Positions 4,116 to 10,346 of a DNA stretch of 20,000 nucleotides are shown in pieces (position 1 is the stretch's first letter; each line of letters begins with the position of its first letter). The position numbers and the translations under genes are program-made. A model generated the notes under the pieces. That model was not told where the DNA came from. It worked only from the letters and a program-made list of their open reading frames with translations, and made no database searches. Origin of the DNA: an uncultured virus (IMG/VR IMGVR_UViG_3300020049_015566) (Duplodnaviria > Heunggongvirae > Uroviricota > Caudoviricetes); the IMG/VR virus record IMGVR_UViG_3300020049_015566; one strand, written 5' to 3'.

Positions 4116-4380
4116 GCTCTCGGATCTGGAGCATGCCCTCTGGTTCGTGAAGACCTACTGCCCGCACTGGCCGATTGTCGGCCGGGACTGGCAGACGTTG
4201 GACGGAACTCAAGAGGAGCACCGGGAGGAGGCTGAACGCTGCTATGCGTTGCTTGAAAAGGCCGGTTTGATCGAGCTGGCCCTCCGGCCTCCGCGGGCTA
4301 AGCCGTGGCGTTCCGGGAAGCCCAACTTCATCGCCCATAGTCCAGAGGAGAAGAAGGTATGCCTACATTGCCAAAGGTAG
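4099..4380 (+). CDS. Hypothetical protein (93 aa)
   Basis: Fills the gap between neighbours with short overlaps; no recognised motif. Confidence 0.55.
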   Translation: MTTPPELSDLEHALWFVKTYCPHWPIVGRDWQTLDGTQEEHREEAERCYALLEKAGLIELALRPPRAKPWRSGKPNFIAHSPEEKKVCLHCQR

Positions 4381-4799
4381 GGAGGGTCAAGCAGACTCTG
4401 ATTGACCGGGTGCTGAAGGAGAACGAGTTCAGCAGCCTCCAGGAGATGTTTGATTACTACCTGAAGGAAGGGCATGGCCCCTATCAGATTGCGCTCTTCC
4501 TGGGGATCCACCGTCGGACGGTGCATAGCTGGGCGATTGAAGCCGGCGTGGTGCTTCCGAAGCGCTGTGAGAAGAGGGCCTTCCCCAAGAGTCCCATGCC
4601 GCCCCAGGCGCTGGAAGCATCCAAGGAGGTCTGTACGCGGTGGATTGACTGGAGAGGTCAACGTGTCAGCATGCAGGATGCCGCCAAGCGCCTGGGGATC
4701 ACTGGGCAGGCTATGGCGTATCGGCTGGATAACTGGAATAATCTGGAGCGGGCAATGACTGAGAGGCGTGACCCCAACGCCGGAGGGAGAACACGATGA
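4359..4799 (+). CDS. DNA-binding protein with two predicted helix-turn-helix units
   Basis: HTH-like GPYQIALFLGIHRRTVHSWA and SMQDAAKRLGITGQAMAYRL; GAGGAG RBS. Confidence 0.75.
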   Translation: MPTLPKVGRVKQTLIDRVLKENEFSSLQEMFDYYLKEGHGPYQIALFLGIHRRTVHSWAIEAGVVLPKRCEKRAFPKSPMPPQALEASKEVCTRWIDWRGQRVSMQDAAKRLGITGQAMAYRLDNWNNLERAMTERRDPNAGGRTR

Positions 4800-4936: not shown

Positions 4937-5171
4937 GGCCTACCTGATCTTCATGACGGTCTTCTTCATCCTGTATCTGTGGGAGACTGCCAGCTGTGTT
5001 CGGGACGTAGAAGACCAGGGTGCAGTCGTTCCCTTCTTCGTTCTCCGGAACATTATCCTCCGCGACTTCACGCATGCTTTCTTTTGGCCAGTGATTGCAA
5101 CCGGTGTCTATCTGACCTGGGCCTTGATGTCGGGTCAGAAGATTTACAAAAGGCTCACAAAGAAGTCGTAG
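4923..5171 (+). CDS. Small membrane protein (82 aa, two hydrophobic segments)
   Basis: ATG 4923 preceded by GGAGGTG; hydrophobic stretches AYLIFMTVFFILYLW and AFFWPVIATGVYLTWALM. Confidence 0.7.
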   Translation: MYYVKAYLIFMTVFFILYLWETASCVRDVEDQGAVVPFFVLRNIILRDFTHAFFWPVIATGVYLTWALMSGQKIYKRLTKKS

Positions 5172-5270
5172 ACGGGTTGGGAGACGCCCCTTAAACTGAA
5201 ACCTCACCAGCCAGTTCTTACTAACCTAACTTTTTCGGGTCGGGCTTTTCAAGCGGCAGGTGCTTTCCAC

Positions 5271-5296
5271 CCTCCCCCTCGGGGGAGGTTTTTTTT
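5271..5296 (+). terminator. Intrinsic terminator
   Basis: CCTCCCC-ctcg-GGGGAGG followed by T8. Confidence 0.9.
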
Positions 5297-5303
5297 ACCC
5301 TAG

Positions 5304-5375
5304 TTGAAGGTGCCCTGCGTTGACATCAGCGCACGGCGGTTCCCAAGACCCCGTGGTCGATCCGGGCACCTTCAA
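5304..5375 (+). other. Multibranch structured element upstream of the SSB-like gene (candidate ncRNA or cis-regulatory RNA)
   Basis: Perfect 12-bp inverted repeat TTGAAGGTGCCC (5304-5315) / GGGCACCTTCAA (5364-5375). It encloses hairpins TGCGTTG-acat-CAGCGCA and GGT-tcccaag-ACC. Confidence 0.5.
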
Positions 5376-5469
5376 GTGGGGTACGAGAAAAAAGCAGTTG
5401 GAGCTTTACCACACTATAGGCTATGGACAGCCTGCCAACTCAAACACACTCTTTTACGAGACCTGAATC

Positions 5470-6159
5470 ATGACCCAGAACCACATTCAAGACCAGATCG
5501 AAGCCGCCCGCAAGCTCGCTCAAGAGCAAGCCAACGCCCTCCCCGCGGCTGACACGACTGTCGCCACCGTTACCCCCGGTGCCAACCAGGTTGCCCTCCC
5601 CACTGCCGGCAAGAAAGTCACCATGGAAGACCTGATGGTCGGCCAGATGGCTGTCGACGGCTGGATGAAGGTTGCCTTCGACGGCATCAAGGTCGGTGAG
5701 TCGAAGTTCATCGACGAAGCCGGCTTCACTGCCATCATCGACGCCCGCGAAGGTGTCGGCTACACCCCTCAGCTGTCCATCAAGTTCGGACAGTCTCCGG
5801 TCAACTACCTGAAGACCTATGACCAGGTAACGGCCAGCAACGGCAAGTCCTGGCCGGATGAGCTGGTGCGTATCGGCCAGCAGTTCCCGACGGCCCGTCC
5901 GTACCCCTCGGCGGATGTCATTGCCATGCTGGTCAAGGATACCGGCACCCTGAAGGCAGGTCAGAACGTGGGCTATGCCCTGGCGACGACCTCCTTCAAG
6001 CACTTCGCCAACTTCCTGCGGGACGTTGAAAGTGCCGGCCTGAAGGGTGAGCGCGTGCTGGTGCAGATCAGCTGCATCCCGAAGGAAGGCAAGGGTAACA
6101 AGTGGGGTGAAGTCAAATACACCCTGATTGGCCCGGCCGACGCTGGCGGCGAGGAGTAA
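5470..6159 (+). CDS. Putative single-stranded DNA-binding protein (229 aa)
   Basis: Beta-rich body, acidic C-terminal tail DAGGEE, strongly biased codon use, bracketed by terminators, located between helicase and exonuclease/polymerase. Function is inferred from context. Confidence 0.55.
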   Translation: MTQNHIQDQIEAARKLAQEQANALPAADTTVATVTPGANQVALPTAGKKVTMEDLMVGQMAVDGWMKVAFDGIKVGESKFIDEAGFTAIIDAREGVGYTPQLSIKFGQSPVNYLKTYDQVTASNGKSWPDELVRIGQQFPTARPYPSADVIAMLVKDTGTLKAGQNVGYALATTSFKHFANFLRDVESAGLKGERVLVQISCIPKEGKGNKWGEVKYTLIGPADAGGEE

Positions 6160-6235: not shown

Positions 6236-7009
6236 ATGAAAATCCAACTGATTGATGCCAACAACTACCTCCGCCGGAAGTTCGAGTCCTCGTTCAACGT
6301 CCCCTCGATCGTCCCCTTGCTTAGCCCTGAACCGATGTTCTGGGTCTTCGACGGCAAGGGCGCCCTGAAGGCCCGACAGGACCTCTACCCTGGCTACAAG
6401 GCCAAGCGGGACCGTGAGACGCCGACCAACAACGGTGCCTATGCGATGCTGCAGACGATCCGTGAGGAGCTCCTGATCCACACCGGCGGGTATATCGTTC
6501 GGGTGCCGGGCATGGAAGCCGACGATATCATTGCCCACCTGGCCGGGACGTTCAGCGGCCAGGGGATTGACGTCTGGGTCGAGTCGAACGACGGCGACTT
6601 CCACAGCCTCGTGGACGAGCGGGTTACCCTGGCTACCCCCCCAGGGTGGACTTCCGAGATCGCACCAAAGGACGTCCGCCTCTACAAGACGCTCGTCGGA
6701 GACCAAAGCGATAATATCCCGGGGCTGAAAGGCTTTGGTGAGAAGGGCTGGAAGGCGCTGTCGGAGGGGGAGAGGCAGCTGTGGAAGGAGTTCTTCCAGG
6801 GTGGAACAGACTGCGACATCCGGAGCATGCTGAAGCCCTCTCAGCTGGAGTGGTTCAACGCCGGCGGGGACAAGCTGCTTCGTATCTTCTGGAAGGTCGT
6901 CGGCTTCCTGCCGGTCACCGACGAGCTCATCAACCGGCACACCGTGGCTGGAGTCAAGGATGCCAAGGCCTACAGTGACGTTCTGAGGAAGTACATGTGG
7001 ACGATCTGA
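6236..7009 (+). CDS. 5'-3' exonuclease / flap endonuclease (PolI N-terminal, T4 RNase H-like)
   Basis: LIDAN, VFDG, R..LYPGYKAKR, EADDII, SNDGDF and LVGDQSDNIPGLKGFGEK (H3TH) motifs. Confidence 0.95.
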   Translation: MKIQLIDANNYLRRKFESSFNVPSIVPLLSPEPMFWVFDGKGALKARQDLYPGYKAKRDRETPTNNGAYAMLQTIREELLIHTGGYIVRVPGMEADDIIAHLAGTFSGQGIDVWVESNDGDFHSLVDERVTLATPPGWTSEIAPKDVRLYKTLVGDQSDNIPGLKGFGEKGWKALSEGERQLWKEFFQGGTDCDIRSMLKPSQLEWFNAGGDKLLRIFWKVVGFLPVTDELINRHTVAGVKDAKAYSDVLRKYMWTI

Positions 7010-7227
7010 AGCTAAGCCTCCGCCGGGGAGCCAACCTGGTGGACACCATCCGCACCCGGTTCCCCAAGACTCCCCCAACGGAGTATTACCACTGGCAAGA
7101 GAGCCTGGATGCCATCTGGGCCCTTTATGATAACGCTGTGATCGACGCACTCCAGGCCAAGAAGGCCAAGGCAGTGCTGAAAAAGCAGATCCAAACCGGA
7201 GTAAAACGCTATGCAAATGCCGAGTAG
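6997..7227 (+). CDS. Hypothetical protein (76 aa, GTG start)
   Basis: GAGGAAG RBS; bridges the exonuclease and polymerase with short overlaps. Confidence 0.6.
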   Translation: MDDLKLSLRRGANLVDTIRTRFPKTPPTEYYHWQESLDAIWALYDNAVIDALQAKKAKAVLKKQIQTGVKRYANAE

Positions 7228-8800
7228 CATCCTGGTCGACCGCCGTAACATCCAGCAGGTCCGTGACCTGATCCTGGAGGACATGCGGTCATCCGGCCTG
7301 AAGGGGCTGGACATCGAGACCACCAACCGCTTCGCGCATGAGGGGATCCTCAAGCTCGAAAGCAAGAAGACGATCTTTGACATCCGCCGCACGGTGATCA
7401 CCGGCTTGTCTGTCTACGCCGACGGCGCCAACCGCTGCTGGTACTTCAACCTCTTCCACGCCGACGAGGCGAACCGCCTGACCTGGCCGGAAGTGCGTGA
7501 ATTCCTTGAGGCCCCTGGCCGCAACCCCTTCTGGGTGATCCACAACGCCCCGTTTGAAATCACGATGTTCGAGAAGTGTGTTGGCTTCAACCTGGGCACC
7601 AACGTCATCTGCAGCCTGCAGCTCTGCGTCACGGCCTACGGCCCGGACACTTACCCCTTGTCGAAGTTCATCACCCCGGACATCGGGGGTATCGCCCGGC
7701 TGATGCCGGCCATCAGCAAGGCCTTCGCCGGATATCAGAAGGGGGATCCGATGACGGCCGACCAGGAGGAGCTCCTGTTCAAGGTCATCGCCAAGGAGAG
7801 TGACGCCGAGCACAGCTACAACGGCTATGTGAAGTCCCTGGCCTACGGCTATGGTCTCAAGCAGGCCGTCAAGAGCTGGTTCGAGTACGAGATGATGCCC
7901 TATGACGCCCTGCTCAAGGCGCACAACGCCACGCGCATGTGCGAGCTCACCGGCGACCAGGTAGTGGCCTATGGCTGCGACGATGCCTTCTGGTGTGTGA
8001 AGCTGTACCACCGGGTGCTGCAATACATGATGGAGACCAACCCGCTGGCGGTGGAGACCTTCTTCACCCAGGAGAACCCAATGGTGCATGAGTATGCCGC
8101 CATCTGGCAGGGGGGTCTGCGGGTCAACAAGGCGAACATCCTCAAGCGGATGGATATGGAGCGCAAGGAGGCCGCCGCCCAGCTCCGCAAGATGAAGGCG
8201 GCGGTGCGTCAGTTGCGCTTCGAGAAGGACCCTCACGAGAAGCTGCTGAAGTACGACGCCAAGTGGTATGAGAAGAACGGTGAGAAGTACCGCACGATGA
8301 TCATGTCGTGGGCCGAGTCCCCTGACAGCGACGACGACTTCAAGCAGGTGATGCAGGTGCGCTCACCGACCTCCTCCGGCTGGGCGGCTGACCGAGGGGT
8401 GGCTGAATCGAAGGGGGTCAACCTCAACCACTACATGCCGATGCGGGTGATGCTGTACGACCTCTGCGGCCTCTCTTTCCAGCTGGCGGACGGCAAGGTG
8501 CAGTCGGACGACGAGGCCCGCAAGACGATGTTCCGTCGCTATGCCAGGAAGTGGGCTGAGAGTCACGGCGTGGAACTGGACAAGGTCTTCGACGTGGAGA
8601 AGCTGAAGGTCCTGTCGGAGCCGCTGCGGGAGGATCCGGTTGTTCAGGTGCTGATGGCCTACATGCAACTGGCGGGTATCGAGCAGCGCATGAAGCTGTA
8701 CCTGACGCCCTACCTGATGATGGTCGACCCGGAAACGGATTGTATGTACCCGGTGCTGTCGAGCCGGTTGGCGACGAGACGGACGAGCTGTCAATTTCCT
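7211..8800 (+). CDS. polA: Family A DNA polymerase, exon 1 (3'-5' exonuclease domain and thumb). Spliced CDS join(7211..8800,9068..9359,9640..10346) = 862 aa
   Basis: ExoI GLDIET, ExoII HNAPFE, ExoIII YGCDDA. Ends ATRRTSCQFP, equivalent to TGRLSS.NP of PolI. Confidence 0.93.
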
Positions 8801-9067
8801 AAATGTTGGGCTTCAGTGGCGTAAGCTGCTGTCGAAAGCTACCTAATTCGGGAGAACACCCTCTGGGGTCAATCACCGAGCTAAGTGTAGGGGGAACCCT
8901 GCTAAATGCGTAACGACCATCCCGCAAGGGAGTACAGCCAAGCGGCTGGAAATGGTAGTCACCCCACCGGGTAAGGCCGAGGGTGTTGATATGGTCTGAT
9001 CTGCATGGTGACATGCAGCTGCCGGAGAGGCGGCCTGGGTCTAGCGTCCCCAGGTGAACATAAATTG
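8801..9067 (+). ncRNA. Group I intron 1 (IA2/td-like, 267 nt, no ORF)
   Basis: 5' exon ends in U8800 and the intron ends in G9067. P1: CCU|AA-aug-UUGGG with U.G pair. P10: GUU 8805-8807 with exon AAC. P2 has a GUAA loop. P3 GCUACC 8838-8843 / GGUAGU 8954-8959. P AAUUCGGGAGAAC, Q AAUCACCGAGC. P7 GACCA 8915-8919 / UGGUC 8992-8996. P7.1, P7.2 and P9 hairpins present. Excision restores FP|NGQQL. Confidence 0.93.
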
Positions 9068-9359
9068 AACGGACAGCAGTTGGCGAAGTACGGGGGGAGC
9101 GCCTATGTGCGGGGCTTCTTCCTGCCAGACCAGGATGACCATGTATTGGTTTCAGCAGACTGGTCGGCCATTGAGCTAGGCATCATCGCGCAGTATTCGC
9201 TCGACCCGGCCTTCATCAAGGCCTATGGTCAGCGGCCACACGATGACCTGCACAGCTGGACAGCCTCGCAGATGATGCGGATGTCGTTGGAGGAGTTCAA
9301 CAAGCTCCCCGACAAGAAGCAGTTACGTACAGATTTGGGGAAGGGTGGGAATTTCGGCT
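9068..9359 (+). CDS. polA: Family A DNA polymerase, exon 2 (motif A and start of motif B)
   Basis: NGQQLAK...VRGFF...VLVSADWSAIEL (motif A)...DDLH...RTDLGKGGNFG (motif B). Confidence 0.93.
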
Positions 9360-9639
9360 TAAAAATCAAGGACTTAGGCCCCTGCAGCCGTGAGGTTGCT
9401 TGAAGAACCAGGTGAACTCAGGGAAACGCCAGAACGGCCAATCCTGAGCCAAGCCGGTAGGGAAACCGGAAGGTGCAACGACTATCCCGCAAGGGAGTAG
9501 GGCTCAAGTGGGCTCGAAGCGCCTGGCCCTGTGATCGAACCTCGGAGGAGGTGGCGCAGGTGATGATATAGTCTGGTCTGCATGGGGACATGCAGCTGCG
9601 AAAGCGTCTAGGGGATAACGCCCCCTAGAGAACACAACG
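9360..9639 (+). ncRNA. Group I intron 2 (IA2/td-like, 280 nt, no ORF)
   Basis: Exon ends in U9359 and the intron ends in G9639. P1 GGCU|UAA pairs with UUAGGCC 9374-9380. P2 GCAGCC-guga-GGUUGC. P3 CCAGG 9408-9412 / CCUGG 9522-9526. P GAACUCAGGGAAAC, Q AAUCCUGAGC, R AACGACUA, S GAUAUAGUCU (P7 GACUA/UAGUC). Excision creates T|AC (Tyr), restores NFGYWYSG and fixes the frame. Confidence 0.93.
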
Positions 9640-10346
9640 ACTGGTACAGTGGAGCTCTCGGCACCGTCGCCAAGGCACGGGGATGGTCCAGCGAGGAGAT
9701 GTGGGAATTCACGGAGATTTACCGTGGGATCTTTGCGGTCGCGGAGGAGTGGCGTCTTGAGACCATCCAGACTGTTCGTCAACAAGGGTATGTGACCTTG
9801 CCTGATGGATTACGGCGGGATCGGTTTGAAGCCACCCCCACCTGGGCTGATGTGATGCGGAACAAGTTCCGGGCGTACAACGTGCCGGGCTTCGTCGAGC
9901 TGATGATCAGCAAGATCCAGAACCGCTCCGGCAACCAGGCGGTGAACGCCATGGTGCAAGGGCTGTGTGCCACGCTGGCGAAGCGGAAGATCCTCAAGCT
10001 GCGGAAGATGATCGCCGACCGTGGTTATCGTGCCCGCTTGTGGCTGCTGGTGCATGACGAACTGGTCTGCTCCGTCCACAAGGACGACGCGATCGACTTC
10101 ATGTACGACCTGTACGAGCTGATGATCGACGGTGAGGGCATCTTCAACGAGATCAAGCTGGACTCCAGCCTGGCCGTGGGGCGCAACTTCCAGCCCTGGG
10201 ATGCCAAGGAGTGCCCACAGGGTCAGATCGAGCTCATGGAGCTCAACAAGGGCCTCCCCTGCCTGCCTGAAGAACGGTATGGGCAACGGGCAACACGGGA
10301 GGAGATTGGGGATGTACTCAAGTACCTGTTTGAGACCCCGGCCTGA
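9640..10346 (+). CDS. polA: Family A DNA polymerase, exon 3 (end of motif B, motif C)
   Basis: WYSGALGTVA..., GYVTLPDGLRR, AVNAMVQG and LVHDEL (motif C). The frame is open upstream of the ORF-track start at 9699. Confidence 0.93.

Follow-up and report, generated by a model that had tools for sequence, protein, structure and literature searches.

Positions 7211-10346 of the DNA analysed here very probably form a single family A DNA polymerase gene (polA) of an uncultured tailed phage, interrupted by two small group I introns of subgroup IA type. This DNA, hereafter called the window, is a stretch of 20,000 nucleotides (nt) from IMG/VR record IMGVR_UViG_3300020049_015566, an uncultured wastewater phage in which this was the sole DNA polymerase gene seen. 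When 8801-9067 and 9360-9639 are removed, exons 7211-8800 (1590 nt), 9068-9359 (292 nt) and 9640-10346 (707 nt) join into one frame of 2589 nt and 862 amino acids (aa), the sole stop of which is at its end. An earlier reading of the same letters, here called the original prediction, had proposed this frame in three pieces, and its coordinates proved exact on translation.

The polymerase gene and its joints

The exons and introns, all on the + strand, are as follows (ORF, open reading frame; P1 to P9.2, paired elements of the intron).

7211..8800, + strand: polA exon 1; 530 codons that hold the N-terminal and exonuclease-like part and end in ...SCQFP; U8800 as the last base; open frame
8801..9067, + strand: predicted group I intron 1; 267 nt, no ORF; P2 at 8814-8831; core P3-P9, with P7.1, P7.2, P9.1 and P9.2; terminal G9067
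9068..9359, + strand: polA exon 2; 97 codons and the first base of a Tyr codon; motif A SADWSAIEL and first half of motif B
9360..9639, + strand: predicted group I intron 2; 280 nt, no ORF; terminal G9639
9640..10346, + strand: polA exon 3; completes the Tyr codon with its last two bases, then 234 codons and the stop; carries the second half of motif B, and motif C VHDEL

Left unspliced, the + strand shows three open frames (7211..8824, 9005..9403 and 9699..10346). The two in-frame stops that had been pointed out, at 8822-8824 in intron 1 and 9401-9403 in intron 2, are present and end the first two of these frames, 7 or 14 codons into the introns. The joints also rebuild conserved motifs exactly as foreseen, since they read SCQFP-NGQQL and GKGGNFG-Y-WYSG, the Tyr codon of the latter being split T/AC. 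At joint 2, a shift of the border by one base either way would change this conserved Tyr to Phe or Asp. At joint 1, borders shifted by +1 or +2 lead to an identical mRNA, and only with 8800/9067 does the cut follow a U and the intron end in G.

The Pfam profile DNA_pol_A (PF00476, cut-off 34.3) was matched by exon 2 at profile positions 140-204 (52 bits, E 6.8e-14) and by exon 3 at positions 227-380 (55.6 bits, E 5.7e-15). These matches lie on successive parts of the profile, as expected for pieces of one gene. Also, the Klenow alignment of the homologue P0004 takes in 'sadws.vel' (motif A), 'gk..nfg..y' (motif B) and 'vhdelv' (motif C), which are family A motifs.

Homologues and natural alleles at the joints

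With exon 1 as the query, a protein search gave 648 relatives; the 120 best, which were listed, are 46-99% identical to exon 1, and their lengths group at about 530-545, 635-651 and 826-918 aa. The original prediction had proposed an alignment of the spliced protein with intron-less homologues as a check, and the two proved collinear: against 16 uninterrupted relatives (46-71% identical), no gap was found at either joint in 16/16. P0004 (71% identical) has the residues of the spliced product across both joints. Database relatives truncated at these sites measure about 538-544 and 635-651 aa, each with a short read-through tail. Gene callers fragment this polymerase, whose true product would be one 862-aa enzyme.

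Natural alleles were found at both intron positions, hereafter site 1 and site 2. The metagenome contig L034 (94% nt identity) is without insert 1 and reads ...CAGTACCCG directly followed by AACGGACAG, which is the predicted exon joint; the three letters directly before AACGGACAG are CCG in this intron-less allele. Contig L035 (94% identical) carries both inserts with identical borders (267 and 280 nt). In total, 34 metagenome and genome loci were compared. Six bear introns (L035, L036, L037, L038, L041, L042), three end before site 1, L034 covers site 1 only and is intron-less there, and the other 24 cover both sites and are uninterrupted. Among IMG/VR viral contigs, a scan using exon 1 alone found no loci, and an alignment-based scan gave 31 relatives (exon 1 35-68% identical), all uninterrupted.

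The exon letters around site 1 differ more than the rest of the gene. Between the window (8770-9100) and L034 (L034:3196-3281), the 27 exon bases closest to the joint show 7 differences, against about 6% overall: the window has QFP with CCT, then QQLA, and L034 has QYP with CCG, then QQIS. The intron-less allele lacks the U required before the intron 1 cut. Such clustered differences would fit either co-conversion or divergence of the target site.

Further truncated relatives were noticed. Five proteins (P0042, P0054, P0062, P0085 and P0098, one of them named from Inquilinus limosus) end around residue 551 (GFFxxD), before motif A, with short unrelated tails, and this end may mark a further intron site. 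Two named phages were considered as carriers of intron-split polymerases and rejected: in Achromobacter phage 2-1 (L189; 2 pieces) and Acinetobacter phage Mystique (L190; 3-4 pieces), the pieces abut or overlap, with no gap of 250-300 nt. Their piecewise annotations look like frameshifts or sequencing errors.

Structure and group I membership of the introns

Both junctions follow the group I rule as had been claimed, the 5' exons ending in U (8800, 9359) and the inserts in G (9067, 9639). A terminal G is also found in the introns of L035, L036, L037, L038 and L042. The helices that had been named for both inserts (P1, P2, P3, core, P7, P7.1/7.2 and P9) could all be drawn with standard pairs. 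They are given below, a slash marking the cut.

8798-8802 with 8806-8810, + strand: P1 of intron 1, CCU/AA with UUGGG; pair U8800.G8808
9356-9362 with 9374-9380, + strand: P1 of intron 2, GGCU/UAA with UUAGGCC; pair U9359.G9377
9384-9399, + strand: P2 of intron 2
9408-9414/9520-9526, + strand: P3 of intron 2
9417-9423/9442-9448, + strand: P4 of intron 2
9428-9438, + strand: P5 of intron 2
9449-9473, + strand: P6 and P6a of intron 2
9478-9484/9569-9574, + strand: P7 of intron 2, with the guanosine-site pair G9480-C9573
9485-9496, + strand: P7.1 of intron 2
9500-9515, + strand: P7.2 of intron 2
9528-9560, + strand: P8 of intron 2
9578-9595, + strand: P9 of intron 2
9597-9628, + strand: P9.1 and P9.2 of intron 2

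For intron 2, P2, P3, P4, P5, P6/P6a, P7, P7.1, P7.2, P8/P8a and P9 were laid out by hand from the Rfam alignment, and 62/62 pairs are standard. The structure was set by hand because the RNAalifold consensus of 7 sequences, while recovering P2-P6, P7.1, P7.2, P9 and P9.2, mis-paired P8 and cannot draw P7. Likewise, an unrestricted search for P1 paired it with the 3' strand of P2 in L035, L038 and L042; once the search was confined to the letters ahead of P2, it recovered the homologous guide.

The search with the Rfam group I model RF00028, which the original prediction had put forward as a check, gave one intron a score over the cut-off and the other a score just under it. Intron 2 was matched at 9350-9595 with 66.9 bits (E 2.8e-15), over the cut-off of 50; intron 1, at 8791-9018, reached 48.2 bits (E 6.6e-11 in a 1.2-kb search), which is 1.8 under it. 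We also built a covariance model from five site-2 introns only (window, L035, L037, L038, L042), because MAFFT did not align the P7.2-P8 parts of the two introns correctly. Over the 20-kb window this model gave exactly two matches. The one to intron 1 (86.1 bits, E 4e-26) is independent, and the 267 bits of intron 2 follow by construction, as it is one of the five source sequences.

The site-2 model matched at 89 places in the 88 sources searched. In these matches 95.2% of cells pair, against 62.1% in shuffled controls and 35-45% with slid partners, the alignment being fitted to the model, which inflates the figure somewhat. Double changes occur in 55 of the 56 pairs of this same fitted alignment, and P7.1 and P7.2 both covary. 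The P7 pseudoknot is outside the model, yet it covaries: 9483/9570 is U-A (63) or C-G (18), and 9478/9574 is A-U (68) or G-C (10). At the guanosine site, G9480-C9573, 80 of the 82 rows with letters have G-C.

Subgroup IA was reportedly defined by Michel and Westhof in 1990 by the extra hairpins P7.1 and P7.2 between P7 and P3'. Both hairpins are present, which would place the introns in subgroup IA, taken here undivided among IA1, IA2 and IA3. The claim that the introns are free of an endonuclease gene also stood, as no ORF of at least 40 aa lies wholly within either of them on the + strand. The predicted identity of the inserts, two ORF-less group I introns with borders at 8801/9067 and 9360/9639, is supported by every test run.

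Intron positions and related introns

The Pro before joint 1 aligns with residue 351 of the Klenow chain in the alignment of P0004. With a chain offset of 323, we take residue 351 to be P674 of DNA polymerase I (Pol I), so that the site of intron 1 is 674; this offset is borne out by Lys, Phe and Tyr of motif B, which it places on their textbook numbers 758, 762 and 766. Introns at site 674 are those of SPO1 (I-HmuI), SP82 (I-HmuII), Bastille (I-BasI) and the cyanophage Pf-WMP3 (I-PfoP3I, group IA2), and other polymerase sites are 676 in PhiL7 and 881 in phiI and W31 (available part of PMC3428280). By this alignment, intron 1 is at the classic SPO1/Bastille/Pf-WMP3 polymerase site, at the same codon boundary. 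Intron 2 splits codon 764 of motif B behind its first base (E. coli Pol I numbering). One full-text search of the literature brought up no description of a polA intron at motif B codon 764, which is a weak absence; the 'motif B' named in the Jug-phage paper (PMC12880540) belongs to an ATPase, and supplements of the cited papers may list such sites.

At site 1, the relative L036 (81% identical) carries an intron of 843 nt (L036:4963-5805), in which an ORF of 182 codons (5096-5644) replaces the P6a hairpin. The product of this ORF matches HNH_3 and, in the PDB, entry 1u3e, an 'HNH homing endonuclease' (E 2.3e-12), which we take to be I-HmuI of SPO1. On this comparison, intron 1 and the L036 intron are two forms of one mobile intron, ORF-less in the window and bearing an I-HmuI-like HNH gene in P6a in L036.

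At site 2, the relatives carry the intron at the following places.

L038:4154-4411: the window's own position
L042:6371-6644, and L041: 6 nt upstream of the window site (GGC U/UU)
L037:4651-4951, and L036: 13 nt upstream of the window site (GGU/)

The site-2 intron thus occupies three positions within 13 nt of motif B, after codon 759, in codon 762 and in codon 764. A guide located 2 nt before P2 reads GGCC where the exon ends in GGCU and GCCC where it ends in GGGU, and the last exon base U pairs with the guide G in P1; both hold in 6/6 site-2 copies, a count of those with a correctly set border that leaves L041 out. In L037, GGGU is available at both positions and the upstream one is occupied. 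The cores of the site-2 introns are 89-98% identical, against 66-72% for exon 1 DNA, and L037 and L038, which differ in position, share a core at 98.1%. These figures point to intron 2 as a member of an ORF-less lineage recently transferred between diverged polymerases. The agreement of guide and exon hints that the guide sequence decides the insertion site; survivorship could give the same picture, because any surviving insertion must pair in P1.

It is quite unlikely that the motif-B ORF-less intron is now mobile without any endonuclease, its site being chosen through the 4-nt guide. Near-identical cores at three guide-matched positions in diverged genes are the trace that RNA-guided integration (reverse splicing, reverse transcription and recombination) would leave. 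We know of no case in which such integration has been shown to move introns between natural phage genomes.

Splicing and alternative explanations

The primary transcript would carry both introns, each folding into a P3-P9 catalytic core and binding free guanosine at the G-C pair of P7. The cut would fall behind the exon U paired with the guide G, in CCU on GGG for intron 1 and in GGCU on GGCC for intron 2, and exon joining would follow behind the terminal G of each intron. Both splicing events would be needed for the full-length enzyme, because each intron has an in-frame stop. The splicing chemistry and its independence from protein ('self-splicing') are inferred from family membership.

The interrupted gene appears to be maintained. 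Across 793 spliced codons, the window and L035 differ synonymously in 117 and non-synonymously in 20, over all three exons, which indicates purifying selection. Between the same two sequences, the changes in intron 2 preserve the pairs of P7.2 (9503/9512, 9504), P2 (9387) and P9.2 (9607-9629). No second DNA_pol_A match was found in the 38-kb virus record containing the window, a record that is 47% complete. Taken together, the codon differences, the pair-preserving changes and the single DNA_pol_A match in 38 kb indicate that the gene is selected as one spliced frame.

Some observations weigh against one polymerase gene with two group I introns. The RF00028 score of intron 1 is under the Rfam cut-off, and its P1 has 5 pairs only, with a 3-nt loop. 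No convincing P10 was found for either intron in a search by eye. Minimum-energy folds have only a modest edge over shuffled sequences (z -1.98 and -2.57), and the full canonical fold is not recovered in them. The part of the genome outside the 47% leaves room for a second polymerase elsewhere. Also, no joint at 8800/9068 or 9359/9640 was seen in the intron-carrying contigs of two runs labelled RNA-Seq, which are possibly DNA, so that this result decides neither way. Two further runs were compared with 7211-10346, one of DNA and one of raw reads, the latter yielding no aligned reads. Apparent joints, such as 8951 to 9560, have 17-24 foreign letters between their sides; they come from other members of the intron family and were rejected as splicing.

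The short P1 and the lack of an evident P10 in intron 1 would also suit true group I introns of which one or both need a phage or host protein in the cell (maturase or chaperone) and are not strictly self-splicing. Not all introns predicted in Bastillevirinae phages spliced in vitro, and some did so solely in infected cells (as far as the available part of PMC11878797 goes). On the other side, the cores of both introns are complete, all helices persist across relatives, the introns have no ORF, and no neighbouring maturase-like gene was found in the window. We judge such a dependence on protein unlikely, though by no means far-fetched. That the gene is instead a decaying pseudogene, with one or both introns no longer splicing and another polymerase replicating the phage, is very improbable. 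It would agree with the lack of observed spliced RNA and with the incomplete genome; against it stand the excess of synonymous differences over all three exons, the compensatory changes that keep the intron helices, the single DNA_pol_A match in 38 kb and the intact catalytic motifs in the Klenow alignment of P0004, whose joint residues equal those of the window.

Finally, three separate polypeptides, or read-through by recoding or bypass, might be imagined to dispense with RNA splicing, as ORF 9005..9403 begins at an ATG within intron 1 and runs in frame into exon 2, and ORF 9699..10346 begins 20 codons into exon 3. However, the cuts lie inside the 'RRxxxxxPN' motif and inside motif B of the O-helix, which must be continuous, the inserts match ribozyme covariance models, and the near-identical L034 is simply without insert 1. 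A bypass of 267-280 nt would far exceed known hops, that of T4 gene 60 being 50 nt. This explanation is barely credible, and one polymerase gene with two group I introns remains the reading that we retain below.

Genome context

By Pfam, the + strand of the window carries a phage replication module, in the following order.

+ strand, before and including the polymerase: NUDIX, SNF2 helicase, helix-turn-helix (HTH) protein, 5'-3' exonuclease (6236-7009), polymerase
+ strand, after the polymerase: RecU-like resolvase, RNase T-like exonuclease, Mre11/Rad50-like pair, deoxynucleoside monophosphate (dNMP) kinase
minus strand: GH108 lysin

Among named phages, tblastn ranks Achromobacter JWF (46%), Xylophilus Lumi, Caulobacter Seuss and several 80-kb Acinetobacter phages closest, and by this comparison the source phage is distantly related to JWF. 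Pfam found no free-standing endonuclease over the 23 ORFs of the window, and the 38-kb record gave no HNH_3 match. One candidate, ORF 4359-4799 (+ strand, 146 aa), was rejected, having two weak HTH matches and no nuclease domain.

The wider intron family

At least 121 IMG/VR contigs contain a 16-nt motif of the P7.1 hairpin. Of the 80 loci fetched with this motif, 65 had their upstream flanks scanned with Pfam. Host genes in these flanks include major capsid proteins (SU10_MCP in 8, Phage_capsid_3 in 3, Gp10A-like in 1), ribonucleotide reductase (2), terminase (1) and DNA_pol_A (2). Endonuclease genes inside longer introns were also met (HNH/HNH_3 in 8, Endonuclease_7 in 2, LAGLIDADG in 1, NUMOD3 in 1). 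A tblastn of the spliced product against the 80 loci gave one weak match (L069), and none is this polymerase.

Four of the viral contigs (L094, L119, L122 and L128) hold two cores within 916 nt each, so that pairs of introns at short distance are not rare in the family. The cores (8891-9100 and 9416-9625) exceeded the flanking exons roughly 15- to 350-fold in summed contig depth in three wastewater runs. This excess means that the core segments are common to many other genomes in those samples.

Comparison with known systems

Phage polymerase genes with group I introns are known from SPO1 onwards, and orf142 of Staphylococcus phage Twort holds three ORF-less introns. Like the introns of SPO1, SP82, Bastille and Pf-WMP3, intron 1 of the window is at site 674, and its relative in L036 holds an HNH gene in P6a, which is the location of the endonuclease ORF in the introns of Pf-WMP3, phiI and W31 (available part of PMC3428280). 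Unlike the SPO1-type introns, it has no ORF, a 6-bp hairpin with a GGAA loop taking the place of the latter. Its host gene also differs, being the diverged polymerase of a Gram-negative bacterial phage similar to JWF and not that of a Herelleviridae or T7-like phage.

Some ORF-less introns are described as moving with the help of free-standing endonucleases ('collaborative homing'), the polymerase intron of the T7-like phage phiI among them (in the accessible portion of PMC3984707). The site of the phiI intron is in motif C (881), whereas those of the window are at 674 and in motif B (764), and phiI has a free-standing endonuclease, of which no counterpart was found here.

The interest added by the window is modest and lies in two series. 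Within one gene family, site 674 exists as an intron-less allele, with an ORF-less intron and with an endonuclease-bearing intron, and the ORF-less lineage sits at three positions in motif B. Together, these alleles and positions would offer a natural series for studying the spread of endonuclease-free introns.

The arrangement had been called unusual, and this part of the original prediction does not hold. In Bastillevirinae, polymerase genes carry two or three group I introns, some without an internal coding sequence (excerpted text of PMC11878797), which resembles the window; introns there average 802 nt and mostly bear endonucleases, whereas those of the window are minimal (267 and 280 nt) and related to each other. 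Jug jumbo phages contain 2513 small introns of about 206 nt, the splicing of which was confirmed by metatranscriptome reads (in what is available of PMC12880540). The window resembles them in having short ORF-less introns, several in one essential gene, and differs in the phage group, in the genes concerned and in being known from DNA alone. Considering also the P7.1 motif in the many contigs mentioned above, the feature is real, yet as an arrangement it is ordinary for phages, here met in a new lineage, and it leaves the knowledge of phage introns as it was.

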